From Gekko japonicus (Eukaryota): DNA of 64,000 bases. The position numbers were made by a program, and so were the translations under genes. The number at the start of each line of letters is the position of its first letter. Position 1 is the stretch's first letter. The DNA is taken from the NCBI RefSeq assembly GCF_001447785.1, contig NW_015176486.1, positions 91,862-155,861 of the forward strand, written 5' to 3'. The notes under the pieces were generated by a model that was given only the letters and a program-made list of their open reading frames with translations, did not search any database and had not been told where the DNA came from. Of this stretch, positions 11,677 through 29,898 are shown piece after piece.

Positions 11677-11913
11677 ACTTAATTTTTTCCCCACAGCACT
11701 CACAGAATAATGGTTTTACGTATGAATGGACAGTCTTTTCCAGCAACAATGATTGGGCCAGGGACCCTTCAGTATAGGGGGTGGGCCACTGTAACCAGTG
11801 CTGCTTCTTGTTGCCTGGGGCAACAGCTGAACAGTTCTAGAATTAACACGGTTACGGAGCCTAGGGGATGGTGGGCAGTTCCGCTTCCGCCAAGATTCCT
11901 TCTCCCACCAAAG

Positions 11914-14900
11914 ATGCATTGCCCCACATGGCTGACCCTCTTCTTGTGGTATTGCTCTCAGAACACAGCGGTTGTATCCCATTCTTTCCTGCCACCCCCA
12001 CTGTCAGTCACCTGTTCGGACCCTCAACACCGAGTCTATCAGAAGCGGGACAATGAACACCATGTCTCATGCTTGTGGGACAGGGACATCCACCTGGAGT
12101 ATTNNNNNNNNNNNNNNNNNNNNNGTGAACAGCAGCCCCCTCCTCACTGCCGCTGGTACCGAGACTCCATCTTGGTTCACCATACAAATAACTGGTCAGG
12201 ACGACTGGTGGTGGGCGCAGGCTTGGTCAGCAGAGCTTCCTATCCACCTTGGGTCTTCACACGTATCACCGTGCAGTGTGTGTCATCTGTGTGCTATGGG
12301 CCCACGTGCCTCCACCACAACCTGAGCATTGAAGTGACTGGGCAGGATGTCCGTCTCTTCCTGCTTCGGCCACGCCAGCTTCCCGTCCGTGAATGGCAGC
12401 CAGTGGAGTTGGGTTGGTGTGCACGCCTTAAGAGATCTACCTGGATCTACCGCTTCAGGAGTCAGGGGGGAAGTCCTGAAGGCCAGCTTATTCCCAGCAA
12501 CCAGCACAGCGAACCAACTGCAGCCACTGTTTACCCCCATGCAGAATTGCACCAAGTGTGTGAATCCTATTATAGCTACCACACGACAGTGAGGTACCCA
12601 GTGCGTGGATTCTACACTGTGTCACTCCACATTGAAAACGGGCCTCAGTCGAGTCGTAGCCTAGAGTTGCAAGTGCAGCCTGCCCTGCTTCATGTCTTCA
12701 CTGCCTCTTCCAAACTGCTGGGCTTCCCCCAGAGGACACTCAGCCTTTCCTGGACCCTCCAACCTCTCAGCTCCAGAATAACAGCTTTCATGTTGGCGGA
12801 GGAGCAGGGTCGGGGGGACTGGGACCACTCATGCAGTTATAACCCATTTGCTCTAGAACGTAATTTCTGTGCTGCACCCAAACCACAACATTCCGGGGAG
12901 AAAGTCATATCCAGCATCTACTTCCATACCAACAAAAGGATATCTGGAGAACTGAGAGGCAAACTCAATTTTGGGAGAGACACCCTACTTTTCACAGCAA
13001 GCAGAACGTCTCCAGCTCATCTCACCCTCAACCCGTGGAAGATAAGGACCGGCATTTACATTTTTAGCCATAAACAGGGCCTCTTCTATTCCACTCAAAA
13101 AAGCAGTGCTGTCAATGCCGCTGGTGACAACGCCAGCTCCCACTACATCTTTTACCAGCAGGAGAGCATCTCTTACCTCATCATCCTTAAATTTCTCCAG
13201 CGGCGATGGTATCGGTTCAACATGCACGTGTATTTGAACCGCAGAGGGATTCTATTCGGGTCTCTAGGAGAAAAAGGTATAGAAGTTCATGTTTTCAGTG
13301 ATCATTCGCCTGATAAAAACTTGGTCTATATTGTGTGGTTTATTCCTGTACAGCATCCTCTGTTGCAGTGTGAGTGGGCCTTCAACTTGCAACTTTTTGA
13401 TTCAAAGAACAACCATCTGGTTTGGAACAATACTTATTCTTACAAGGATCGTGTCAGAAACGCTGCCCGTTTTCTTCCCCAGTCTCTTTTACCTTTCAGA
13501 ACTGCACTCTACACAGGCTTTGTGGCAGAAGTGAACTGCAGAAGGACTGGACTTGCTCGAGCTGTTTTGAAAGCCACAGTCCACACTTACGCATCAAAGG
13601 TCTTAAAACCAGAGGTGCCTTGTCAAAAGAGTTTCTGTCATGAAGTGACTGCCGTAATCCAGAAACCCGATCCTTCTAACCCAGTCACAAGCTACTCAAG
13701 ACAGTCAGCAATTACCTTGAGAGCAACTGCAAAGGCACTGTGTAGGACACGTTCACATGTAGATATAATCTGGGAAATCTCCGGTGTTCATAATTCAGTC
13801 CCATCAGGAGCAACTAGCAGGATAAGGACAGGCGGAGTCACATTTCACATGCCCGGAAAGCTATTAAAGCCCGGCTTATATCGTCTCAGAATGACCATGA
13901 CAGTATACCTACCAGAATATAATATAACCATCAGAGAGTCTGATTCAGTTACCATAGATATTGTAGAAAGCGATCTGCTAGCAGTCATAGCCGGAGGCTC
14001 TTTCAGGACAGTAGGTGTTTCTGATCGTTGGACTTTGGATGCATCCGCTTCTTCTGACCCGGATTCAGACAACCCCCAGGAAGGACTCTTGCTTAACTGG
14101 TTGTGCTCCAAACGAGAATCAGATTTTTTAGAGCGGAAGCTGAGCCCACGTGGAAGATGCCGTCCAGATCAAGAGACTTTGAAATGGACGGATTCCCACA
14201 ATCCAGTCCAAACAGTACAACAAGAAACATTTCAACCAAATAATACGTATTATTTTGTTCTGAGAATTACTAAAGACAGAAAAACAGCAGATGCTTATCA
14301 GACAGTTCAGGTACTGCCTGGCTCTCTTCCTGTGCTGAATTTCACCTGTATTCAAAACTGTGGAAGAAACATTATACCAGCTAAAAGACTAATTCTTTAT
14401 GGGAAATGTTTAAACTGTAAAGGTAAACCGGTCATCTACCACTGGTCTCTTCTTTCATCAAGCTCCAAGAAAATACCCTTTGACTGGGATGCCAAAACTT
14501 CCACTGGGAGGTCAAATCCCTACCTAAGCATCAATCCTTTGGCTTTCAACACTTTGCCACACAAATCTTACACTCTTAGCCTCACAGCAAGCACGCAAGG
14601 AAGCCAAGAAGCTACTTACAAATATTCATTTTCTATTAATGCTCCACCACGGATTGGGAAGTGTAGCATTTATCCAAGGGTAGGCACAGCATTCCTTACG
14701 ACATTTGTTGTCCAGTGTAGTGGATTTGAAGATGAACATGGACCTCTTACATATAAAATCACGGCGCATTCTGACGAAACGAAAATAGGTAAAACGTCAT
14801 TTCTAGAGAATACTTCACTTGGAACAGTAGTATATGTAGGTCATCAGCATAAAATTCTTCCATCTTTTCTTCCCCTTGGTGCACCATCTAAAAATTATGC

Positions 14901-17900
14901 CTTGATAGTGTGTGTTCAAGTGTATGATGCCCTTGGAGCATATTCTCAAGAAAGTTTGCAAGCCACGGTGCATGATCCGAGAAAGAATAAGCCAACTGAT
15001 GGTGTTCTCAATGAACTACACAATTTAATCAGTGGCCCCACGGCAATCTTCTTCGAAGCAAAGGATTACTTTAATATAGGTTATTATACATATATGGCGG
15101 CCTCAGTATTAAACAATATTGAGGCATCACCAGCCATTCATGGCTCTAAAACTGATTTGCGGGAAGCTTTCCTTAATGTGTCTGCAAGGATTCCAATGAC
15201 TGAGGTTGAGGTAATAAGGCAAGTGATTGCCAGTATCTGTCAAATAACACAGGATGTCACAGAAGTAAATGGGAAATCACAGCTTCTCGCAGTGAGAAAA
15301 CTAAAAGAAGCCAGCGAAGCTCTACAAAGGCACAAAACCCAAGACCTGGGTTCTAAGGAAACAGAAATCCTTGTCCATGGTATATTTACTGGGCTGTCAA
15401 ATGTGTTGGCAGCTGCTCTATTAAAAAGTAGGCACGTCAATGTAAATTCAGTTAAGGAAACCATTGCTGTGACAGAGATACTAGCAAACTTAGTATTACA
15501 GGACAAAGTACCTGGAGAGTACGAAACTAATCTAGAAACTAAATACTGGGCCATTCATCTACGGAAAGATGAGAAGCAGGATGTTTCTCACACTTTTAAA
15601 GAAAGAAACTGTAAGAACTGCTTCTATCCCAAACTGAAGAAGGAAAATGACACTGACTTACCGGCAGATGCTGTGGTTTCCACAGTTTTGTATGAATTTG
15701 TTGAGAATCCCTTCCCTTGGCTTTTGGACACAGTAGTTAGTCACACAATAGTGACTGGGTTTAGGATGACCGCCGCGAAAGAAAATGGTGACATCGTAGG
15801 GATCACACCTGAGATTGCAGAAGTGATGATAGACATACAACACAAGGATTCCACCACCTTTGGCCTAACTGTAGGGCCAGCTAAAAATCACCATAAGACA
15901 ACAGGAGGCTTTAGTTTTGAAGTGAAGAGAATCTCCAAAGACGTATTTATCCAGATTGTGAGTAACCTAACGGTTACTTTCAATGTCTCTCTCTACCTTG
16001 GGCTCAATGTCAGCCATCCTCCAATAATTTCTTATATTGCTTCCTCTGACAAACCTCCAGTACTCAGTGGAAAGCATTCTAATATTAGTAACTGTGCAAT
16101 TAAGGCTCCATATATCCTTTGTCTTCCTCAGTCGTTGCTTCGGACTTTAGTGGAAGGCAGCTCAGCAGACAAATGGAACATCTCGGTTGTCTTACAATCC
16201 CATCCTATTGTGAGAGCCCAAACCACAAAGATTGTTCGCATTGCTGTTTTTGCAGCGGAGTGTCTAGATTTAGATGGGGTTCAGAACCAGTGGAGAGAAG
16301 GAACATGCAATCTTGGGTCTCAGACCAGCTGGTCCAAGATACATTGTATTTGCAAATTAAAAGACAGTGTCATAAGAACAAAAAGGTCCAGGTCGACAGG
16401 GACCTCCAGATTGGGTACCAGATTTCTGAGTGGTACATTTCAGCTTTATCCCAATCCTTTGGATATAAACAAGGTCCTTTTAGCAGAATTTGACACAACT
16501 CCAGTGACACTATTTACAGTGTTTTTCATTTTTGCAATCTACATCTTTCTGATTATCTGGGCCACAATCAAAGATAAAGTCGATATGAAAAGAAAAGACA
16601 AAATCCTTGTTTTGCCAGATAATGACCCTTTTCACAGAGTTTGCTACCTGGTCACTGTATACACAGGAAGTCGGCTGGGATCTGGAACCACAGCGGATGT
16701 CTTTATCGAACTGACAGGCCAAAACGCTGTCAGTGATGTCCATCGCTTAGAACACCCAACTTTCCCAATCCTCTTTCGTGCAGCTGTTGACACCTTTCTC
16801 TTAACCACCAAGACAGATTTAGGAGACATTTCCTCTCTTCATGTCTGGCACAATAATGGTGGTGCTTCCCCTAACTGGTACTTAAGCCGAGTTAAAGTAC
16901 AAAATGTACAAACGAAAGAGTCCTGGCTGTTTTTATGTCGAAGCTGGTTTGGTCTCGGTAAGGACTGCAAAATAGAAAGATCGTTTCCTGTTACTGACAA
17001 AGCCATACCTTTAAAAAAGATGGATTACTTCTTGATAAAACTTGCCAAAGACTTGGAAGACAGCCATGTGTGGCTCTCTCTCTTTTCTCACGTTGTCACT
17101 GGTCCTTTCAACAGAGTTGAGAGAATATCTTGTTGCTTGGCAATCATGCTCTCCAGCCTATTATTTAACATCATGTTCTTCAGTGGTGAACAGGACCAAC
17201 AGGTTATTTCGATACAGCTACGTTATATGAAATCTATGTATATTGGGTTTGTGAGTGCTTTCTTTTCTATTCCTGTGCACCTGACAATCATAACTTTATT
17301 TAGATATTCACAAGAAAAGCCTTTGGATCTCCAGACAGATGAGTATGAGCAAAAGAGATGTTTCCTTTTTATGTCTGCAAGCTCTCTCGTAAACTGGAAT
17401 GTCCGATGTCCGTCACCACCAAACACTAATTATAGCAACAATTCTTCAGTGGAGAAGGACACAGACACGAAGACACTAAGGAAGTTCATGCACCGAGTGT
17501 TGCGCTTTATTAAGAGACCACAGTTTCCATGGTGGTGCAGATATGTCTCTTGGACATTGGTCTTTTTAATATCTACAATGGCATCTTTTTTAATCATATT
17601 ATATGGTTTGACCTATGGTTACACAACATCATTGGAGTGGTTTATAGCATCCATGACATCGTTTTTTGAGAGTGTCTTTTTGCTTCAAACTTTGAAGATG
17701 GTTCTTATCTCAGCTATTAGCACTGTATTTACAAAACACTGTAAAAATATCTCCTGGATAAACACAGAAAAATATGAGAAGATGAAGCTGGAGAAAGCAA
17801 TTGTAGATGGTAAAGACATGAGGACGCTGCACCATGAACTTGTACAACTTAGAGGGTCCTGGGAATACGAACCTTTAGAAGAGGATAAAATCATCATTAT

Positions 17901-19539
17901 GAGGGAGAGAACAAAGGCCCAAAACCTAGCCTTTGTTTTTATAAGGGATATTATTGCTCATGTAATCTTCTCATCCTGTGTTTTAAGCATCGCTTACTCA
18001 ACAGATACCACTACTAGCTTTTATTACAATCAAGTTATTTATAATAAATTCTCTGCCAATCTATCCCTAGTAAATAAACTGGAGGATGTGTACAGATGGA
18101 CACGCAATGTCTTTGTGCCACTGATACACAATGATTATCAACCAACCTATCTTTCAGACACTTCAGCTAAAATCTTTGGTTTGCCCAGAATGAGGCAAAT
18201 AAGAGCCACAAATACTGAAAAAAAATGTTTCCATTTACACAGCTTTGTAAATAGTTTTCTGCGTAATGAAAGCCATTGCCATCATAAATATGGAACTGAT
18301 CCAGAAGATGAAGCTGATTATATTGGATCATGGACAAACCCCATGCCTAAATCCACTTCCAAACATTCCAGCAGTATTCAAGGGTTTACCTATGAGCCAG
18401 ACGTTGATAAGTGGAAATATAAATCTTATGGTGTTTTGAACACATATGGGCCAGGGGGGTACAGCTTTTATTTTTTCCCTGGAGAGCAGCGACCCAATAC
18501 AACACTGAGGCTGGATGATATTCAAAGAAACTACTGGCTAGATGAGAAGACCTGGGTAGTGATCTTTGAGCTGACCATTTTCAATCCGGACATAGATCAG
18601 TACTGCAGCATCACAGTCATGTTTGAGACTTCTGGTATTGGAGTTGTGGATGCCAGCTTGTCAGTTCGTACTTATAAACTGTCTACTTTGCATCTTCAAA
18701 CCAAGTCCCAGATAGCAGCATATGGAGTTATGACATTCATTCTGGTCTTTTACCTTGCTGATGAATTTCATATGTTACATCAGGAAAGGATGGGCTACCT
18801 GAAAAGAACAACTAACTTAATCAATCTTGCCATGAAGATCAGCTGTATACTTTTCATAGTGTTAATTGCACTCAAATTCAAACTGGCTTATAACTTAATA
18901 GACTTTTACCTTCTTAATCCAGAAAAATTCGTTCCTTTTCATGTGGTTTCTCAAATTGATCAGCTCTATGGGATGGTTGCCGGATTTTTGACCTTTCTTC
19001 TGCTTTTAAAACCTTATCGCTATTTCAGATTCATGTATGATGTGCGTCTAGCAGCAGCCACCATAGCAGCCGCTCTCCCAGTGTTCGTTTCCTTGACCAT
19101 GCTTACTGGTCTGGTCTTTTTGGTACACATATCATTTGGATACCTATTATTGTGCGAATACGAATGGAGTTATAATTCTGTGATTCATGCTACCCAGACC
19201 GTTGTTTCATATTGTATTCATGTGGCATCACTTCAAGACATTCAGTTTCCATCCAATACATTCCTGGGGATCTCATTCCGAGTCTTATTCATGTTTACAG
19301 TTACTTGTGTTCTCATCAGTTTATGGCGTGCTGTAATTATCTTTACCTACACATCCATGAAAAAGCCTACCTATGAACAGCATTCTGATGAAGCAGCAGC
19401 AGTAGATTTTGTAGTCTATAAAATCCAAAGTCTATGGTTTTTCATCACTCATCAGACACCATCCACAAGGAACAGTGACCTTCTGAACAGTATAATATTT
19501 GGAAAACCAAGAGCACAAAAGTGGAAGGCAGGAAAATGA
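11914..19539 (+). CDS. PKDREJ: PKDREJ-like polycystin-1 family protein, divergent paralogue (copy A), intronless, ~2541 aa
   Basis: Single ORF with signal-peptide-like start (MHCPTWLTLFLWY), REJ module (LDASASSDPDS, CSGFED), GPS-like C-W-C-CxC, TM1, PLAT (YLVTVYTGSRLGSGTTADV, WHNNGGASPNWYL), TOP (GLPRMRQ, YGPGGY, WLDEKT) and channel TMs. Start chosen by homology to copy B (ccaaagATGcat vs cctaaaATGcac). A 20-N gap lies at 12104-12123. Confidence 0.93.
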   Translation: MHCPTWLTLFLWYCSQNTAVVSHSFLPPPLSVTCSDPQHRVYQKRDNEHHVSCLWDRDIHLEYXXXXXXXXEQQPPPHCRWYRDSILVHHTNNWSGRLVVGAGLVSRASYPPWVFTRITVQCVSSVCYGPTCLHHNLSIEVTGQDVRLFLLRPRQLPVREWQPVELGWCARLKRSTWIYRFRSQGGSPEGQLIPSNQHSEPTAATVYPHAELHQVCESYYSYHTTVRYPVRGFYTVSLHIENGPQSSRSLELQVQPALLHVFTASSKLLGFPQRTLSLSWTLQPLSSRITAFMLAEEQGRGDWDHSCSYNPFALERNFCAAPKPQHSGEKVISSIYFHTNKRISGELRGKLNFGRDTLLFTASRTSPAHLTLNPWKIRTGIYIFSHKQGLFYSTQKSSAVNAAGDNASSHYIFYQQESISYLIILKFLQRRWYRFNMHVYLNRRGILFGSLGEKGIEVHVFSDHSPDKNLVYIVWFIPVQHPLLQCEWAFNLQLFDSKNNHLVWNNTYSYKDRVRNAARFLPQSLLPFRTALYTGFVAEVNCRRTGLARAVLKATVHTYASKVLKPEVPCQKSFCHEVTAVIQKPDPSNPVTSYSRQSAITLRATAKALCRTRSHVDIIWEISGVHNSVPSGATSRIRTGGVTFHMPGKLLKPGLYRLRMTMTVYLPEYNITIRESDSVTIDIVESDLLAVIAGGSFRTVGVSDRWTLDASASSDPDSDNPQEGLLLNWLCSKRESDFLERKLSPRGRCRPDQETLKWTDSHNPVQTVQQETFQPNNTYYFVLRITKDRKTADAYQTVQVLPGSLPVLNFTCIQNCGRNIIPAKRLILYGKCLNCKGKPVIYHWSLLSSSSKKIPFDWDAKTSTGRSNPYLSINPLAFNTLPHKSYTLSLTASTQGSQEATYKYSFSINAPPRIGKCSIYPRVGTAFLTTFVVQCSGFEDEHGPLTYKITAHSDETKIGKTSFLENTSLGTVVYVGHQHKILPSFLPLGAPSKNYALIVCVQVYDALGAYSQESLQATVHDPRKNKPTDGVLNELHNLISGPTAIFFEAKDYFNIGYYTYMAASVLNNIEASPAIHGSKTDLREAFLNVSARIPMTEVEVIRQVIASICQITQDVTEVNGKSQLLAVRKLKEASEALQRHKTQDLGSKETEILVHGIFTGLSNVLAAALLKSRHVNVNSVKETIAVTEILANLVLQDKVPGEYETNLETKYWAIHLRKDEKQDVSHTFKERNCKNCFYPKLKKENDTDLPADAVVSTVLYEFVENPFPWLLDTVVSHTIVTGFRMTAAKENGDIVGITPEIAEVMIDIQHKDSTTFGLTVGPAKNHHKTTGGFSFEVKRISKDVFIQIVSNLTVTFNVSLYLGLNVSHPPIISYIASSDKPPVLSGKHSNISNCAIKAPYILCLPQSLLRTLVEGSSADKWNISVVLQSHPIVRAQTTKIVRIAVFAAECLDLDGVQNQWREGTCNLGSQTSWSKIHCICKLKDSVIRTKRSRSTGTSRLGTRFLSGTFQLYPNPLDINKVLLAEFDTTPVTLFTVFFIFAIYIFLIIWATIKDKVDMKRKDKILVLPDNDPFHRVCYLVTVYTGSRLGSGTTADVFIELTGQNAVSDVHRLEHPTFPILFRAAVDTFLLTTKTDLGDISSLHVWHNNGGASPNWYLSRVKVQNVQTKESWLFLCRSWFGLGKDCKIERSFPVTDKAIPLKKMDYFLIKLAKDLEDSHVWLSLFSHVVTGPFNRVERISCCLAIMLSSLLFNIMFFSGEQDQQVISIQLRYMKSMYIGFVSAFFSIPVHLTIITLFRYSQEKPLDLQTDEYEQKRCFLFMSASSLVNWNVRCPSPPNTNYSNNSSVEKDTDTKTLRKFMHRVLRFIKRPQFPWWCRYVSWTLVFLISTMASFLIILYGLTYGYTTSLEWFIASMTSFFESVFLLQTLKMVLISAISTVFTKHCKNISWINTEKYEKMKLEKAIVDGKDMRTLHHELVQLRGSWEYEPLEEDKIIIMRERTKAQNLAFVFIRDIIAHVIFSSCVLSIAYSTDTTTSFYYNQVIYNKFSANLSLVNKLEDVYRWTRNVFVPLIHNDYQPTYLSDTSAKIFGLPRMRQIRATNTEKKCFHLHSFVNSFLRNESHCHHKYGTDPEDEADYIGSWTNPMPKSTSKHSSSIQGFTYEPDVDKWKYKSYGVLNTYGPGGYSFYFFPGEQRPNTTLRLDDIQRNYWLDEKTWVVIFELTIFNPDIDQYCSITVMFETSGIGVVDASLSVRTYKLSTLHLQTKSQIAAYGVMTFILVFYLADEFHMLHQERMGYLKRTTNLINLAMKISCILFIVLIALKFKLAYNLIDFYLLNPEKFVPFHVVSQIDQLYGMVAGFLTFLLLLKPYRYFRFMYDVRLAAATIAAALPVFVSLTMLTGLVFLVHISFGYLLLCEYEWSYNSVIHATQTVVSYCIHVASLQDIQFPSNTFLGISFRVLFMFTVTCVLISLWRAVIIFTYTSMKKPTYEQHSDEAAAVDFVVYKIQSLWFFITHQTPSTRNSDLLNSIIFGKPRAQKWKAGK

Positions 19540-19578
19540 TTTCTCTTTCCACTTAAGAAGAACACTGCTAAAAAAATG

Positions 19579-19584
19579 AATAAA
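19579..19584 (+). terminator. Candidate polyadenylation signal of copy A
   Basis: AATAAA 40 nt after the stop codon, followed by T/GT-rich sequence. Confidence 0.45.
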
Positions 19585-20207
19585 TTCTGTATTTCCATGG
19601 AATTTGTCTGAATATGCTGTCATGTTCAGTTGCCGTCTGTTCCACTTCACAACTATTTCTACTTCTGCTATTCATATGACTCCTGATTCTTTATGCGCTC
19701 TTAAACTATAGTGAACAATTTTTTCTGTGTGTCCTGTTGAGTGTTAAGGCCAAACTAGATTTGATGGCGCCCTCATGGCTGCAACAGGGACACCACCCCC
19801 ACTTTAAAGTGTTTAAAACTGGGGGGGGGGGGAGAGAAGTTCTGTTTACGTGTAGAAAACGGCCAGCCCTTGGCAGAGGTGACTGTGGGACAGAAAGGTA
19901 ATTTGTCATTTCTGATCCAAATGGACCCTTAGACATAAAGTTTGACCAATGACTTGTTCAGTGGCCAACTGTGGCTCTCTGTTTTTACTCATGAAATTGA
20001 CGGTTCTTTCAACAGACTAAAGAAGATGTCCTGTTGCTCAGCAATATTACTGAGTTCTGTGTTGTTTAACAGCATATTCTTCAGTACTGAGAAGAATAAA
20101 GGTAGCATTTCAGTATATCTGAGTTGTGTGACATCCATAAAAATCAGAATTCAAAGTGCCTTGCTTTCCATCCCTGTGGACCTGATTATAACAGCCTTAT
20201 TGAAGTA

Positions 20208-20500
20208 CTAGCAGTAAAGCCCATTGTAGAAGCAATAAAACGAGCTCTAGAAAGATGTGATGCGTAATGAATGCATAGAAAGGTACAGAAGTGGAAGTAA
20301 AGTCTCACACACACAGCCAGGCCACCTGGGGCTCTCCCATCCCCCCCCCCGGTCAAGCCTCCTGCGGCCCAGCCAGGCCGGCCTTGGCTCTCCCCCCCCG
20401 TTCAAGGCCCCTGCGGCCCAGCCAGGCCGGCCTTGGCTCCCCCCCCCCTTCAAGCCCCCTGTGGCCCAACCAGGCCAACCTTGGCTCTTCCACACACACC
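20208..20500 (-). mobile_element. Helitron-like 3' end with internal ~48-bp GC-rich minisatellite
   Basis: Minus strand: gctcgtt...aatgggc hairpin then CTAG|t at 20211-20208; unit cagccaggccggccttggctc(c)n-ttcaag-ccctgcggcc repeated about 3.5 times at 20313-20490. Confidence 0.55.
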
Positions 20501-21646: not shown

Positions 21647-21990
21647 CACAATATTTCAAAAGGAGGTGGGATTTTCTTGGCGGTGTCCTCCAAAGCGTGT
21701 TTGTGTGAGTGTGCACGACCACACACATACTTGTAATAAAACGTGTACGTAAACAAATAAGGACATGGCTTCTTCAGATGAAGGCGAGATGAAATGGAAT
21801 ATTTTATGAGGGCTACAAAGAGGGCAAAGGATGGGAGACATGGCTTTTTGAGAGGGGCAGGGAAGTAGGGACCCTGGTTTCCCAGCAACGCATGGCATTC
21901 TAGAATCCATGTAAATGTTTCATCTATGGCAGTTGGGGATGCTGAGAGCCAGGGACTGCTCCTGATTCCAGCTTTTTGCATCACCCTAAA

Positions 21991-24900
21991 ATGCACCACA
22001 TGTTGTACCCCCTGATCCTCTTCTGGTACTGGGGCTGCTTCCAGTATCCAGCAGCCGTGGCCCCTCATTTACTGCCACCACCACTGCTGGTCACCTGCTC
22101 AGACCAACAAACGCGTTTCTCTCGGCAGCAAAATTACACTCTTTGGACTTCATGTCTGTGGGATGGAGACACCAAGCTGTACTACTGGAGAGACGCTGGG
22201 TTTGTTTCAAGAATTAGGAGGGGAGAGACAGATTTGTCATCTTCTCCTCATTGTAGCTGGTACTGGGGGTCAGCCTGGGTGCACAGCATGATTCTCTGGC
22301 CACGTTCGTGGTTGCCGGGCTCCAGCCTAGAAAGAAGAGCCTTACATTTGCCTTGGGACTCCAGCCGCATCCCTGTACGGTGTGTATCGCTCTCCTGCAG
22401 ACTGCCCTCGTGCCTTCACCGCAGCCTGAGCATTGAAGTGTTTGGCCAGGATCTCCAGCTGCTCCTGCTTTGGACACCCACACGTCCTACCCAAGAACAA
22501 CAACCGGTCCAGCTGGGCTGGTGTGCCCAACTCAACAGTTCAAGACAGCCCTCCCGCTACAGCAGTCAAGGAGATGAACCTGTGGCTTTGCTCCTCCCCG
22601 CTGCCCGCCTGGATTCTCCACACTACCATAGTGGTGACTTGTACCGCATGTGCACCTCCTATTTCAGCTACCACCTGACTGTGCATTATACCCACCAAGG
22701 ACTACATGTCGCTTCCCTCCGCACTAAGCATAGGCCTCAAGCCAGCTTTAGCCCGGACTTTCCAGTGGAACCCATTCTGGTACACATTCTCAGTGCCAAT
22801 TCCAAATGGCTCCATATCACTCATAGCACCATCAGCCTGTCCTGGAGCCTCTTACTTGTAAGCCCCAGAACAATGGCCTATAGGCTCTTGGATGTTGAGA
22901 GCGGGGGGTTCTGGTTTACCTCCTACAATCCATACGCTCTGCAGAACAATTACTCTGTTGGCCGTATTCCAGAGCATTCCAGGAAGAAGGTAGTGGCTGG
23001 CATATACTTTTGCACTGGAGAAGGGGGTACTGGCGAGCTGAGAGGGGAACTCAGGTACTCTGGTGCCACCTTAAGTCTAACATCTAAGAGTGAGCCACCA
23101 TCTCACTTCACTCTCAACATACGCAAAATCAAGACGGGCAGTTACCTTTTTAGCCCTGCCCAGGACCTGTACTATGCCACCCAAGAAGGAAGTGCTCCTG
23201 GTGACCTGTCCAGCATACACTACTTTTTCTACCAGCAACAAAGCATCTCCTACCTATTTACCATTGAGTTTCTCCAACTGCAATGGTACAAGTTCAACGT
23301 ACATCTGTACCTTAACCGAAAGGGAGTCCTTTCACAGAAGTCTTTCCCCGAGAAAAATATAGAAGTTCATGTTTTCAACAGCGGTCCTTCTTTTTTACAA
23401 AGTGTGATCTATATTGTGTGGTTCGTTCCCATCCAGCATCCGCTGCTGCAGAATGAGTGGACCTTCAAGTTGCAGTTGTTTGATTCAAGAGATGAGTTTC
23501 TCATACAGAACAACACTTACACATACAGGGATCGTGTAGAAAATGCTACCCATTTTATTCCTCACTCTGTTTTACCTTTCAATCCTGTCTTGTACACAGG
23601 CTTTGTAGCCCAAGTGAACTGTACCAGAAGCCGATTGATATGGGCTGTTTTGAAAGCTACGATCAACACTTATGCTTCAAAGGAAAGCAACTCCCTGGTT
23701 GCTTGCCTTCAAAAAAATTGTTTTATCAAGAAAGTGAATATATGGAAACCTGATATTTCTAACCGTGTCTTAAAGTACAGTAAAGGGACCTCATTTACTC
23801 TGTCTGCTGACATACAGATGAACTGTCCAAGTCCTAAACAAAGACACAACATCTGGAAAATCTACAAGGTCTCAGACATGAAGACTACTCCTGATTGGTC
23901 AAAACCTTTTTATCCACCTGGCTTTGGAAGGCTAGATCTCGTCATGTTAGAAGTTCCTGGTTCTACTTTAGATGATGGCTTGTATCTCTTTAATTTTACA
24001 GTGAAATTAATCACAGTGGATACTTTGGAGAGTGTAGAAGGCTCTGATTCTGTGTTTGTCCAGATTGGGTCTGGTAGTCTTGTGGCCGTCATTACTGGAG
24101 GCAATTTCCGGACAGTTGGATTTTCGGATCAATGGACCCTAGATGGATCCTCTTCCTATGATGGTGATCCTGCCTTTCCTTCTGAAAGACTCACGTTTAC
24201 TTGGTACTGCACCAAGCAAAAATCAGACTATGTATCTATGACGCTAAGTCTGAAGGGAAAATGTCGCCCAGATCAGGAGGGCTTGAAATGGACAACATCC
24301 TTGGATGCAGTTCAAACAGTGCCGCCTGAAGCACTTCAAGAAAATTCTGTTTATTATTTTTGCCTTGTGGTTCAAAAGGGTGACAGGATAGCTCGGGAAG
24401 AACAAACGGTCCGTGTACAGCCAAGCTCTGTGCCAGCTCTGAACATCACATGCATTGAAAATTGTGGCAGGTCCGTCACTCCCACTGAAAGATTTTGTCT
24501 CTCTGGCAAGTGCACAAACTGTAAGAAACTGAGCAAACCACTCTATCACTGGTCACTTCTCATGGCAAATTTCACTGAGGTAAATTTTGATTGGGATGCC
24601 AAGTCTACAACCGGAAGGTCCAGTCCTTACATATGTATAAAATCACTGAGTTTTGTAAATATGACAGAAGAGACATACATTCTTACTCTAAAAGCAAGCA
24701 TCTGGAGATACCAGACATCCGTTTATAGCTATTTATTTTTTGTAAATTCTCCACCTCAGATTGGAAAGTGCTTGCTTAAGCCTACCACAGGGATTGCATT
24801 TCTAACAAAATTTGTTGTTCGTTGTAGTGGGTTTAAAGATAAACATTTGCCTCTTACATATAAAATCAGAGCAGCATCACACACCCTAACAATTACCAGA

Positions 24901-27900
24901 AAGTCTTCTACAGAAAACAGCAACCTGGGGACAATTGTGTATTCTGGTTATCAGCCTAAAATTCCACCATCTTTGTTACCCATTGGCATCCCCTCTAAGC
25001 AATATGCCTTGCCAATCTATATTGAGGTATATGATGCCCTTGGAGCATTTTCCCAATTAACCTTACAGGCAAAGGTACACGGTCCATTCAAGGGTAAGCA
25101 AACAGAGGTTACTCTAAATGAATTACATAATTTTTCCAGTGGACCAAAGGCTCCAATAACACATTTTCTTGAAAGTGGGGATTACTTTAATGCGGGATAT
25201 TTCATCTACATGGTGGCTTCTGCTTTAAATAACATTGAAGCGCTGAAAAGATTTCACTCCTCTAAGACTAAACTACGGGAAATCCTTCTGAACAGGTTTG
25301 CAGGAATCCCTGCAAAAGGTGTAATGGAACTAAACCAAATGGTCTCAGGAATTTCTCAAATAACTCAGGAAGTCACGGAAGTAAATAGGAAATCACAACT
25401 CCTTGCAGTCAGAAAGCTCAAAGAACTGAGTGAAGAATTGAAAAGGTACAGAGATAAAAACATAGGCTCTAAGGAGACAGAAGTTCTCAGCACCGGTATT
25501 TTTGAAGGGCTGTCTAATATCCTGAAAGCCTCTCTGTTAGACATCAGAAATGTCCATAGAAATGGAGTGGAAGAAACTCTCTCTGCCGCTGAAATTTTAG
25601 CAGAACTCGTCTTACAAGGTAAAGTTCCTGGAGAAAATGAAACTCTTATAGAAACCAGTGATTGGACCATCACCATTAGGAAAGATGAAAAATGGGATGT
25701 TTCTGGTACTTTCTCTAACAGAGAAGTCTGTAAGAATTGCTTTTATTCTAAAATCAAGCCAGAGAGTCATGATGAGTTGCCATCAGATGCTGCAATCTCC
25801 ACTGTTCTTTTTGAGTTTCGTAGAAACCCCTTCTCCTGGTTGTCCCTTTCAGAAGATATGAGCACAATGGTGACTGGATTCAAAATGACAGGAACCAGAT
25901 CTAATGGTGACACAGTGGGGATCATACCTGAAGTAGCTGAAATGATCATGCCTAGAAAAGACAAGGGCCCCGCCATCTTTGAGCTGAAGATTGGACACGG
26001 CAGAGGATGCCACAAAACGACTGGAGGCTTTAGTTTTGAAGTACCTAGGAACTCCAAAGACGTTTTCATCCAGATTGTGACCGAACTGAAGTTTACTTTC
26101 CAAATGTTTGTTTATCTAGACCTCAATACCAGCCATCCTCCTGTTGCATCTTTCAGTGTTTCCCATAACAAGAACACAGTAACGAGAGGAACAAAGTCTA
26201 AGGGCCATGACTGTGCAGCTCAAGCCCCTTATATATTTTGTCTCTCCCGCTCTTTGCTCAGATCCATTTTCCAAGGTAACAGTGCAGAAAAATGGAACGT
26301 CTCTATTGTTTTACAATCAGATCCATTCAAGTGGGACCCAAGCGTTCAGGCCATTGGTATCCGGCTTTTTACTGCCGACTGCTTATCCCTAGATGGAATC
26401 CAGGGTCAATGGAAAAAAGATGTCTGCAGCCTTGGCTCTCAGACGAGCTGGGAGAAGTTACATTGCATCTGCACAGCCAAAAAAAGGACTCCAAGGACAG
26501 CAAGTCCTCAACCAGGAAGAACGTCCAAAAACAACATAAGGTTTTTGGCTGGCAAAATCAATGTGTACCCTGATCCGGTAGATATGAAGGAAGTCTTGTT
26601 GGTACAAACCAACAACAATCCAGTAACGACGGTGACAGTACTTTTCATTTTTGTCATATACATTTGCTTGGCTTTTTGGACAACAAGGAAAGACAGGGCT
26701 GATATGGAAAGCAGGGATCGTGTCATAGTCTTATCAGACAATGATCCCTACGACCAAGTATGCTACTTCGTCACAGTACATACGGGGAGTCGCTTCGGAG
26801 CAGGAACCACAGCCGACGTTTTCATTCAGCTGATAGGCCACCGGGGTGCTAGTGATATACATTGCTTAAGACACCCTGAATACCCAACTCTTGCGCGTGG
26901 AGCCGTCAACACTTTTCTCCTGAGTAGTAAGAATGACCTTGGAGACATTTATTCCTTTCGCACTTGGCACAATAATAGAGGTTCATCTCCTAACTGGTTC
27001 TTGAGCAGAATCAAAGTGCAAAATGTGCTTACCAAACAATCTTGGATGTTCATGTGCCAAAAATGGTTTGCGCTCAATAAGGATGATGGTCTAATAGAGA
27101 GGTCCTTTGTCGTTACTCATCCAACCACACCTTTAAGCAAAGTGGATTTCTTCTTGATAAATCTCACCTATGAGTTGGGAGAGACCCACTTATGGCTTTC
27201 TGTTTTTGCTCACAGCAACATCGGTTCTTTTAACAGGCTTCATAGATTGTCTTCTTGCTTAGCAATACTGTTGTGCATCCTGTTCTTTAACATTATGTTC
27301 TTCGACGCTGACAAGGACGAACTAGTGGTTTCTGAACAGCCATGGTATCTGAGGTCTCTACTGACGGGAATTCAAAGTGCCTTCATTTCCTTCCCTTTGC
27401 AGATGTTTATAACTGCTTTGTTCAAGTACACCCAGCGGGAGCCTTTGCCACAGGAGCCATCTAATACTCAGCCTAAAAAATATTCTGCTCCCATGTCTAG
27501 AAATCTTAGGAACTGGAAAGAGGGTTTGCAGAAATGGTGCGTTGCAGAAATGGCTCCAAAATGTCTAGGCTATCATTTCCAAAAGGACCCTTCCAGTGCT
27601 CCAGATTCACGCAGTCTGGAACAGCGGAGCAGAAAAAGATGGGGGCAGGTGGCAAAAAAAACGAGTAACTGTACCATTTCTGAAGGGGATGCAAACAGAA
27701 TTGCAACGGAAGAGGACGTGGTTCGTGAGGCCAATGCCACCAACAATTTGAATAGTAGAAATGAGAAGAAAGGTCCGTATCCTCAGACAAAACCGCTAAA
27801 TAGTCTCATCATGATCCTTCATAAAAGCCCACAAATAATAATTTCCTGGTGGTATATGTATGTTTTGTGGGTGTTGGTCTTGGCCACTTTGACAGTATCA

Positions 27901-29898
27901 TCATTTTTTATCATATTTTATGGTCTGTCCTATGACTATGAAACGTCCTTTGAGTGGCTTGTGGCATCTAGCATCTCATTTTGTGCGAGTGTGTTTTTGC
28001 TTCAGACCTTGAATGTTGGTTTTTTCCCAACCCTGAGGACTGTCTATCCAAAATTCTGTGAAGACATCCCATGGTCCAGCAGAGAGACCTACTTAGAGAT
28101 TAAACTAGACAATATCACGATGGATGCTGATGAGATGCGAGAGTTACATTACAACCTAGTCAGACTTCGAGGAACCAAGCAATACCATCCCTTGGAAGAG
28201 GAGGAAATCACTCTTTTTAAGAAAAAGCAGAAGATTCAAAGGCAAGCTTTTGTTTTCATAAAGGATGTCATATGTCACTTCATCTTTCTAATTCTTATTT
28301 TAAACATTGCCTGCTCGATAGAAAACAGCACTAGTTTTTACTACAATCAAGATATTCATACCAAATTCTCTCGGGGGCTCGATGATATAAGCAAGTTAGA
28401 GCACGTTTACACTTGGCTGAAGAATGTCTTTCTACACTTGATCCACAACATAGACCACCCAACTTATCTTTCAAAGTCCTGGTCCAAAATCCTGGGGTTG
28501 CCCAGGATGCGACAAATAAGAGCAAAAAACACGTCAAAGGAATGCTTTCACTCACGCAGTTTGGTAAATAGATTTCTGATTAGAAACAGCCATTGCCTTC
28601 ACAAGTATGGACAAGACCCAGAAGATCGACAAGATCACCTTGGGCTGTGGACAGATTTTGCCAATAGATCAGATTCCAACCTTTTTAGCAATTTTTCAGG
28701 CTACACTTACTATTCAGTCACTGATCAATGGAGATATGCTTCATATGGAGAAATGAATACTTATGGAGCAGGAGGGTATACTTTTCATTTCTATCCAGAA
28801 GAACGACAGACCAATTCTACAAAAAGAATTGCTTTTTTAGAACAGAGAAGGTGGCTGGATGAAAATACCTGGGCATTAATAGTTGAGCTGACAACTTTTA
28901 ATTCAGATGCAGATTTATTTTGCAGTATCTCAGTTGTTTTTGAGATGTCTGGCTTAGGCCCTGTTAACACAAGCTTGTCAATCCATTCATACAGACTCCC
29001 AGTTTTCCAGAAGCTAAGCAACACACAAAAGTTGGTGTACATTATTGTTGCTTATATGCTGGTCTTTTATATCATTGATGAAGTTTGCATGGTGGAGCAA
29101 CAGAGACTAAAATACGTCAGAAATATTTCTAACTTAATTAACTTCGGGATAAAGACAGTCTGTCTGTTTTTCCTTTTGTACCTTTCCTTCAAATTTAAGC
29201 TGGCTTCTAGCTTAATAGAGCTTTACTTACATCATCCAAATGAATTCATTCCATTCCATAAAGTTTCCCACGTCGATCAAACAATAAGGGTTACCCTGGG
29301 TTTTTTGATCTTTCTTATCATTTTGAAAACTCTGCGATATTCTCGATTCTTTTACGATGTGCGCCTGGCTCAGCGCTCCATGTTAGCCGCCCTCCCTGGA
29401 ATCTGCTCCATGGCGCTGGTGGTGGCCGTGTACTTTTTTGTCTACATGGCCTTTGGCTACCTGGTATTTGGCCAATATGAATGGAACTACCATACTATGA
29501 TTCATTCTGCTCAGACGGTATTCGCGTACTGTGTTTCAGCTTTTAAAGACACGGCCTTTTCATCCAATAGGGTGCTCGGAAGTCTCTTCCTGTCTTCGTT
29601 TATGATGGTCATGATCTGCGTGCTGATCAATTTATTTCAAGCGGTGATCATGTCCTCCTATGAGGACATGAAGCAACCGGTCTACGAAGAGCCTTCCGAT
29701 GAAGCGGAAGTGGTCAAATTTCTGTGTCACAAGATCCGCAGGATGTGGTTTATTGTGACCTGCAGGACACCACCTGAAAGCGATGCAGAACTTTTCATCC
29801 GAGTCCTCTATGGTCATTCTGAAAGGAGAAACTCACGTCACCTGGGACTCAAAGCCAGGAAAATAAATGGCCGGAAAATGGTTTACCTTGTTGTTTGA
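21991..29898 (+). CDS. PKDREJ: Polycystin family receptor for egg jelly (copy B, canonical-looking orthologue), intronless, ~2635 aa
   Basis: Same architecture as copy A; channel region LKTLRYSRFFYDVRLAQR...GYLVFGQYEWNY...CVLINLFQAVI...MKQPVYEEPSDE and terminus INGRKMVYLVV match mammalian PKDREJ as recalled; lies adjacent to CDPF1 as in mammals. Confidence 0.97.
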   Translation: MHHMLYPLILFWYWGCFQYPAAVAPHLLPPPLLVTCSDQQTRFSRQQNYTLWTSCLWDGDTKLYYWRDAGFVSRIRRGETDLSSSPHCSWYWGSAWVHSMILWPRSWLPGSSLERRALHLPWDSSRIPVRCVSLSCRLPSCLHRSLSIEVFGQDLQLLLLWTPTRPTQEQQPVQLGWCAQLNSSRQPSRYSSQGDEPVALLLPAARLDSPHYHSGDLYRMCTSYFSYHLTVHYTHQGLHVASLRTKHRPQASFSPDFPVEPILVHILSANSKWLHITHSTISLSWSLLLVSPRTMAYRLLDVESGGFWFTSYNPYALQNNYSVGRIPEHSRKKVVAGIYFCTGEGGTGELRGELRYSGATLSLTSKSEPPSHFTLNIRKIKTGSYLFSPAQDLYYATQEGSAPGDLSSIHYFFYQQQSISYLFTIEFLQLQWYKFNVHLYLNRKGVLSQKSFPEKNIEVHVFNSGPSFLQSVIYIVWFVPIQHPLLQNEWTFKLQLFDSRDEFLIQNNTYTYRDRVENATHFIPHSVLPFNPVLYTGFVAQVNCTRSRLIWAVLKATINTYASKESNSLVACLQKNCFIKKVNIWKPDISNRVLKYSKGTSFTLSADIQMNCPSPKQRHNIWKIYKVSDMKTTPDWSKPFYPPGFGRLDLVMLEVPGSTLDDGLYLFNFTVKLITVDTLESVEGSDSVFVQIGSGSLVAVITGGNFRTVGFSDQWTLDGSSSYDGDPAFPSERLTFTWYCTKQKSDYVSMTLSLKGKCRPDQEGLKWTTSLDAVQTVPPEALQENSVYYFCLVVQKGDRIAREEQTVRVQPSSVPALNITCIENCGRSVTPTERFCLSGKCTNCKKLSKPLYHWSLLMANFTEVNFDWDAKSTTGRSSPYICIKSLSFVNMTEETYILTLKASIWRYQTSVYSYLFFVNSPPQIGKCLLKPTTGIAFLTKFVVRCSGFKDKHLPLTYKIRAASHTLTITRKSSTENSNLGTIVYSGYQPKIPPSLLPIGIPSKQYALPIYIEVYDALGAFSQLTLQAKVHGPFKGKQTEVTLNELHNFSSGPKAPITHFLESGDYFNAGYFIYMVASALNNIEALKRFHSSKTKLREILLNRFAGIPAKGVMELNQMVSGISQITQEVTEVNRKSQLLAVRKLKELSEELKRYRDKNIGSKETEVLSTGIFEGLSNILKASLLDIRNVHRNGVEETLSAAEILAELVLQGKVPGENETLIETSDWTITIRKDEKWDVSGTFSNREVCKNCFYSKIKPESHDELPSDAAISTVLFEFRRNPFSWLSLSEDMSTMVTGFKMTGTRSNGDTVGIIPEVAEMIMPRKDKGPAIFELKIGHGRGCHKTTGGFSFEVPRNSKDVFIQIVTELKFTFQMFVYLDLNTSHPPVASFSVSHNKNTVTRGTKSKGHDCAAQAPYIFCLSRSLLRSIFQGNSAEKWNVSIVLQSDPFKWDPSVQAIGIRLFTADCLSLDGIQGQWKKDVCSLGSQTSWEKLHCICTAKKRTPRTASPQPGRTSKNNIRFLAGKINVYPDPVDMKEVLLVQTNNNPVTTVTVLFIFVIYICLAFWTTRKDRADMESRDRVIVLSDNDPYDQVCYFVTVHTGSRFGAGTTADVFIQLIGHRGASDIHCLRHPEYPTLARGAVNTFLLSSKNDLGDIYSFRTWHNNRGSSPNWFLSRIKVQNVLTKQSWMFMCQKWFALNKDDGLIERSFVVTHPTTPLSKVDFFLINLTYELGETHLWLSVFAHSNIGSFNRLHRLSSCLAILLCILFFNIMFFDADKDELVVSEQPWYLRSLLTGIQSAFISFPLQMFITALFKYTQREPLPQEPSNTQPKKYSAPMSRNLRNWKEGLQKWCVAEMAPKCLGYHFQKDPSSAPDSRSLEQRSRKRWGQVAKKTSNCTISEGDANRIATEEDVVREANATNNLNSRNEKKGPYPQTKPLNSLIMILHKSPQIIISWWYMYVLWVLVLATLTVSSFFIIFYGLSYDYETSFEWLVASSISFCASVFLLQTLNVGFFPTLRTVYPKFCEDIPWSSRETYLEIKLDNITMDADEMRELHYNLVRLRGTKQYHPLEEEEITLFKKKQKIQRQAFVFIKDVICHFIFLILILNIACSIENSTSFYYNQDIHTKFSRGLDDISKLEHVYTWLKNVFLHLIHNIDHPTYLSKSWSKILGLPRMRQIRAKNTSKECFHSRSLVNRFLIRNSHCLHKYGQDPEDRQDHLGLWTDFANRSDSNLFSNFSGYTYYSVTDQWRYASYGEMNTYGAGGYTFHFYPEERQTNSTKRIAFLEQRRWLDENTWALIVELTTFNSDADLFCSISVVFEMSGLGPVNTSLSIHSYRLPVFQKLSNTQKLVYIIVAYMLVFYIIDEVCMVEQQRLKYVRNISNLINFGIKTVCLFFLLYLSFKFKLASSLIELYLHHPNEFIPFHKVSHVDQTIRVTLGFLIFLIILKTLRYSRFFYDVRLAQRSMLAALPGICSMALVVAVYFFVYMAFGYLVFGQYEWNYHTMIHSAQTVFAYCVSAFKDTAFSSNRVLGSLFLSSFMMVMICVLINLFQAVIMSSYEDMKQPVYEEPSDEAEVVKFLCHKIRRMWFIVTCRTPPESDAELFIRVLYGHSERRNSRHLGLKARKINGRKMVYLVV

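Follow-up and report, generated by a model that had tools for sequence, protein, structure and literature searches.

The inner gate of PKD2 consists of two residues, F676 and L677, of which L677 faces the pore at rest, while F676 turns in upon activation (PMC5998024). Exchange of F676 to Trp or Tyr blocks activated F604P, whereas L677N is not blocked. In PKD2L1, the exchange L557Q opens the channel, and polar residues at L557 raise the current; a Lys or Arg mutant at the L677/L557 level is not named in the available part of that article. In PKD1L3, F2100 closes the first layer of the gate, and F2100A fails to open the channel (PMC8357825). PKD1 lowers the current of open-gate PKD2, and removal of its basic S6 residues raises the current (bioRxiv 2024.11.22.624889). 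Heteromers with PKD1 conduct despite the S6 arginines in a gain-of-function setting, with an altered selectivity, and R4090W abolishes the current (PMC6832002). The constrictions of this heteromer were described as pairs of R4100 with L673/N674, A4103 with L677 and R4107 with N681 (PMC13473692).

According to PMC12799467, channel data exist for no PKDREJ heteromer. PKDREJ is reported to be under positive selection in mammals (PMC5553355), has a dN/dS above that of all other sauropsid TRP genes (PMC10776941) and, according to a review, modulates G-protein signalling. The absence of the HL(T/S) triplet from the GPS is a feature of this protein (PMC9672506). Squamates possess three tandem copies, one of which is missing in gekkotans (Karin et al., bioRxiv 10.1101/672238); the copies served as phylogenetic markers in that study, whose available part contains nothing on pore sequence or function.

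The window analysed here is a stretch of 64,000 nucleotides from Gekko japonicus (contig NW_015176486.1, positions 91,862 to 155,861). Translation of its open reading frames revealed two long single-exon frames, referred to as A and B:

11683..19539, forward strand: PKDREJ paralogue A, an uninterrupted single open reading frame of 2618 codons from stop to stop
19842..20244, forward strand: remnant of a decayed PKDREJ gene between A and B, interrupted by in-frame stops, in the slot of the middle paralogue by position only
21946..29898, forward strand: PKDREJ paralogue B, an open reading frame of 2650 codons with a likely start at 21991 and the ancestral pore kept
29635..29640, forward strand: Phe-Gln of the B gate

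The likely start of A is the ATG at 11914, judged by likeness to the N-termini of its orthologues; residues of A are counted from the start of the frame at 11683, and a run of 21 N lies inside the frame (12104-12124). In both copies, Pfam matches above the cut-off occur in the order REJ, PLAT, polycystin (TOP) and PKD_channel. The length of A lies within the range of about 2200-2700 codons used for single-exon PKDREJ, and its GPS (HCICKLKD, residues 1554-1561) is devoid of the HL(T/S) cleavage triplet. A has in common with canonical vertebrate PKDREJ the intronless structure, the REJ, PLAT and TOP domains with a six-helix channel, the missing triplet and the tandem locus. Directly behind the uncleaved GPS cysteines of A, the motif RTKR occurs (16375-16386), a furin-like site; it is also present in the orthologues P0003, P0005 and P0008 and absent from P0004, P0006 and P0007.

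At 19500-19556, a deletion after FGKP shifts the frame of the tail of A, so that about 25 last codons are frameshifted in G. japonicus and the conserved end (STKVEGRKMISLST) is found in a different frame. This conserved C-terminal tail is altered in four of the seven gecko A copies and in Elgaria; besides that of G. japonicus, the tails of rows P0005, P0006, P0007 and P0020 are altered. As to expression, the reads over 12200-19700 are scattered and may stem from DNA, with five (run X1) and three (run X2) read-sized contigs at a depth of 2-2.5; run X4 gave two near-identical reads and run X5 none, plus a cross-match of 35 bases (14843-14877). One extra A is present behind 19532 in a depth-2 contig of run X2.

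All named matches of A were PKDREJ or PKDREJ-like, the closest being gecko PKDREJ-like proteins with 70-76% identity over the channel region. A search with residues 2330-2610 of A yielded 24 proteins, comprising 20 orthologues of A, one paralogue of the middle type and three gene models devoid of S5-S6, which were excluded from all A counts. The A clade set thus comprises 21 copies, namely that of this gecko and the 20 squamate orthologues. From the B search, the best 120 of 242 matches were used; B and non-squamate PKDREJ together give 165 canonical copies among the matches listed. In a quick IQ-TREE search on the last 640 residues (58 rows, all outside PKD1L1-3), A (21 rows), B (21 rows) and the non-squamates (15 rows) formed separate clades with SH-aLRT values of 99-100 (100 for A and 99 for B). 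The A subtree, with orthologues from geckos to snakes, broadly tracks the squamate groups. In Phrynocephalus, A, the middle paralogue and B follow one another in this order, as their locus tags (015611, 015612, 015613) show. Judged by its sequence, A is a squamate PKDREJ paralogue, and the published triplication (10.1101/672238) matches the two intact copies and the remnant found here. For the remnant itself, turtle PKDREJ gave the best score, and its sequence provides no assignment to the middle paralogue. At a third-position identity of 0.47-0.65 along the gene, the idea that A and B had recently undergone gene conversion was rejected. Among the public models, P0024, P0033 and P0047 fuse or scramble adjacent PKDREJ paralogues, and the N-terminal piece of P0024 hints that, in Phrynosoma, A is preceded by more PKDREJ sequence.

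The features of A relevant to the pore are the following:

19036..19377, forward strand: pore domain of A (S4-S5 linker, S5, pore helix, filter loop and S6; residues 2452-2565), 381 changes versus 44 in B
19150..19155, forward strand: Leu-Cys for Phe-Gly after S5, private to this species (A clade: Phe 18/21, Gly 19/21)
19216..19263, forward strand: filter loop of A, 16 residues versus 14 in B, with the canonical VSAF (aligned with LGD of PKD2) replaced
19279..19281, forward strand: Arg2533 at the outer end of S6, aligned with F661 of PKD2 (Arg 15, Gln 5, Leu 1 of 21)
19324..19326, forward strand: Trp2548, aligned with the inner-gate residues F676 of PKD2 and F2100 of PKD1L3 (21/21 A copies)
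19327..19329, forward strand: Arg2549, aligned with L677 of PKD2 and A4103 of PKD1 at constriction 3 (Arg 19, Lys 1, Gln 1 of 21)

An initial annotation of this DNA had regarded the pore as the most conserved part of PKDREJ. This is true for B, for which parsimony gave 0.39 changes per site in the pore versus 2.50 elsewhere, whereas A showed 3.34 and 2.65, respectively. These are amino-acid changes, in which relaxed and diversifying selection look alike, counted on an assumed squamate topology with 17 matched species, some represented by stand-in genera. The 381 versus 44 changes fall on 114 pore sites; the 1477 sites outside the pore carry 3918 changes in A and 3686 in B, including a trimming artefact in the first 40-site window (123 versus 3). 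Since the rest is about equal, the special constraint on the pore was lost in A alone of the A/B pair. The ratio of A to B is 8.7 in the pore and at most 1.6 in any 114-site window upstream of it; by segment, it is 0.76-1.39 in PLAT, TM2-5, S1-S4, TOP and the post-S6 helix and 5.8-14.6 in the five pore segments. The ratios of maximum-likelihood site rates agree (1.0-1.8 outside versus 3.6-7.7 in the pore; 21 rows per copy, incompletely matched), and by the same method the filter loop of A reaches 8.1 substitutions per site, compared to 8.7 in its hypervariable cytoplasmic loop. The identity between A and B is about 40-47% in the pore, similar to several other regions, so that the contrast is visible only through the orthologues. 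The pore of B is frozen, and that of A evolves like ordinary membrane sequence. All 21 A copies have hydrophobic S5 and S6 helices and a long open reading frame. In TOP, the voltage-sensor-like helices and the post-S6 helix, the constraint on A is equal to that on B. The assembly of TRPP tetramers involves TOP, S4 and the post-S6 helix. Within S4 (about 19009-19026), A has a fixed motif KPYRYF (Pro 16/17, Tyr 17/17, Phe 17/17) versus KTLRYS in B, which puts a Pro kink right before the S4-S5 linker.

The middle paralogue (8 lineages) likewise lacks a frozen pore and is fast throughout the C-terminal region. Leu is retained at its Arg2533 site (11/11) and Gln at its Arg2549 site (10/11), and it has gained no Trp-Arg. 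Its gate Phe is replaced by Ser in seven, Leu in three and Ile in one of 11 copies (P0023, P0147-P0157), representing a third gate chemistry.

The initial annotation had further described the pore of A as rebuilt, and the individual changes are real. Both peptides quoted for this region occur in the translations of A and B, the two codons are CGA (Arg2533) and CGT (Arg2549), Phe-Gly of B is Leu-Cys in A, the loop between YC and the start of S6 is longer by two residues, and INLFQ is changed to ISLWR. As features of the clade, most of them did not hold. Among the 21 copies, Arg2549 is kept, Arg2533 is less well conserved, and the loss of FG, the insertion and the exchange of Asn to Ser are not clade-wide. 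The loss of FG and the insertion were rejected as clade features, because the former is private to the species and the latter is limited to geckos (6/7); the loop measures 16 residues in six geckos, 13 in Eublepharis, 15 in five and 14 in nine copies. Residue 2546 is Asn in 16 copies, Ser in four geckos and His in one. Because these three changes and Arg2533 are poorly conserved, much of the rebuilding looks like relaxed selection, an outcome that the initial annotation had itself counted against its proposal. An obligate pair of Glu2458 and Arg2549 was also rejected, as G. japonicus carries Ala at 2458.

In canonical PKDREJ, VSAF and NLFQ are near-invariant in the 165 copies listed, whereas A replaces both and has Trp-Arg for Phe-Gln; neither the VSAF filter nor Leu at the top of S6 nor the NLFQ gate is found in A. 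Among the matches listed, the Arg2533 site is Leu in 165/165 canonical copies, the Trp2548 site Phe in 160, Leu in 4, Val in 1 and Trp in none, and the Arg2549 site Gln in 155, Arg in 7, His in 2 and Leu in 1. Trp2548 is the most distinctive change and had been underweighted before. Within the 114 pore sites of A, W2548 ranks 10th in slowness, R2549 32nd and R2533 64th (maximum-likelihood site rates); Trp is slow to change in general. A change from Gln to Arg is a single transition, and its occurrence in 7 of the 165 canonical copies listed implies that Arg alone is tolerated. Six of the seven were identified (sloth, seriema in a low-quality model, otter, tenrec, sheep and an unnamed protein; P0118, P0129, P0136, P0196, P0198 and P0200), and they belong to several lineages.

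The S6 helix of A can be aligned gaplessly with those of PKD2L1, PKD1L3 and PKD2 (the L677A/N681A chain among them), and PKD1L3 is the best match of A among solved sequences (E 2.6e-30). The predicted monomer of A (mean pLDDT 76.8; model residues 416-449 below 50) matches PKD2, PKD1L3 and PKD1 with Z values of 29-32 and an rmsd of about 3-5 Å over about 400-445 residues. The structural alignment ends at model residue 492, PKD2 694 and PKD1 4120; gapless reading back from these end points places R2549 at L677 and A4103. By the same reading, W2548 corresponds to F676 and to PKD1L3 F2100 (numbered by counting from M2065/K2069), residue 2546 to N674 and R4100, residue 2553 to N681 and R4107, and R2533 to F661. 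The residue of canonical PKDREJ at the Arg2549 site is Gln, as in the L557Q mutant that opens PKD2L1. The pLDDT is near or below 50 across the pore loop in both copies, and AlphaFold monomers therefore do not distinguish the pore of A from that of B.

Homology of the arginines of A to R4100 and R4107 of PKD1 was rejected, as A has Asn or Ser at the position of R4100 and Ile at that of R4107; with Thr at the position of H4111, none of the three sites is basic in A. F661, at the level of Arg2533, is not among the constrictions in the available part of PMC13473692, and R2533 probably sits behind the filter. Arg2549 may lie on the pore-facing side of the helix, depending on whether S6 adopts its pi or its alpha state. 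In PKD1 (R4100, R4107, H4111), a single polycystin-1-type subunit likewise contributes basic S6 residues on the pore-facing side; a conventional pore helix and filter are missing from PKD1, whereas A is predicted, with low confidence, to keep the pore helix. In PKD1L3-PKD2L1, the gate-closing F2100 is the counterpart of W2548; PKD1L3 conducts and has Lys (K2069) in its filter, whereas A has Arg for Val2101 and no fixed filter residue.

The leading explanation, put slightly short of an even chance, is that A is a gate-plugging, poorly conducting channel subunit. A would still occupy the single polycystin-1-type place beside three TRPP subunits, which the B-like constraint on TOP, S4 and the post-S6 helix would fit. 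With a drifted filter loop and a Trp-Arg pair aligned with the inner gate, such a channel would be shut or conduct poorly. By analogy with PKD2, Arg2549 would meet cations at the L677 level in the resting state and Trp2548 would fill the gate at the F676 level in the activated state, so that one of the two new residues would line the inner gate in either state of S6. The drifting filter may indicate that precise permeation is no longer selected in A. A might then be a receptor that damps TRPP current while retaining signalling or scaffolding roles, and B would be the ancestral pore-lining subunit. The earlier proposal of a pore-altered or non-conducting subunit holds in part: Arg2549 is conserved and aligns with a known constriction, while most of the changes listed for it are unconserved and look relaxed. 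A further-reaching version, which appears doubtful, is that the triplication gave rise to three gate chemistries at PKD2 676-677 (Phe-Gln in B, mostly Ser-Gln in the middle paralogue and Trp-Arg in A, as a two-state lock that would close the pore at rest as well as on activation), and that A is a dominant-negative form competing with B over TRPP calcium entry in sperm, with plugging evolved independently of PKD1.

Several points speak against a plugged gate. The relaxed pore of the middle paralogue, which lacks Trp-Arg, would fit plain relaxation after duplication; F676W was assayed with four copies per channel, of which A would supply one; at the L677 level, polar residues can have an opening rather than a closing effect on the gate; F2100A of PKD1L3 does not open its channel, and PKD1 heteromers conduct with S6 arginines; and R2549 is only moderately slow-evolving, with Arg recurrent in canonical copies. 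A could instead stand outside any working pore and, under relaxed selection, act as a receptor without channel function, for egg-coat binding or G-protein modulation, in which Trp-Arg is only a membrane anchor or packing motif. This is somewhat unlikely, and both readings predict little current. The pore rate of A near that of its remainder, the freely varying filter residues and loop length, the middle paralogue that is likewise relaxed, down to a remnant in this gecko, and the altered C-terminal tails would agree with such a receptor, as would the G-protein modulation reported for PKDREJ and the 15-residue hydrophobic stretch bracketed by Arg2533 and Trp-Arg. However, TOP, S4 and the post-S6 helix of A are constrained like those of B, the fixed new residues coincide with two known gate positions, and S6 of A is hydrophobic beyond Trp-Arg, like a full pore helix.

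It is quite unlikely that heteromers with A conduct and have acquired new properties, the polar Arg preventing the hydrophobic gate from sealing and the changed filter, maybe diversifying under selection, reducing calcium permeability or fitting a different TRPP partner. The increased currents with polar residues at PKD2L1 L557, the conduction of PKD1 heteromers with pore arginines at altered selectivity and the positive selection reported for mammalian PKDREJ (PMC5553355) point in this direction, together with a net charge of the A filter loop of mostly 0 to +2. However, a filter of 13 to 16 residues evolving at a near-unconstrained rate is unlike a tuned one, and activated PKD2 was blocked when F676 was exchanged to Trp. 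The frameshifted tail and the private loss of FG might also suggest that A is a decaying gene or that the changes are errors of this assembly. This is very improbable, and for the clade as a whole it appears largely refuted: the 20 orthologues from geckos to snakes have long open frames and the same Trp-Arg, and their subtree broadly follows the squamate groups. Since the orthologues share the pattern and the depth-2 contig of run X2 (19309-19578) shows no difference at the Trp-Arg codons, an assembly error does not explain it.

The triplication in squamates is already published; the contrast between the pores of A and B is apparently new, as no report on pore divergence of squamate PKDREJ paralogues was found in the mostly open-access literature on PKDREJ that was searched. 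A fast-evolving sperm protein thus has a near-frozen pore in one copy, and this constraint was dropped in the sister copy. Indirectly, this contrast suggests an exacting function for the pore of canonical PKDREJ. A and B offer a natural pair with two named residues (Phe-Gln versus Trp-Arg) for the existing open-gate PKD2 assay in oocytes. The shaping of the pore by polycystin-1-type subunits is an active question, and if A blocks, a polycystin that plugs the pore would have arisen a second time, independently.
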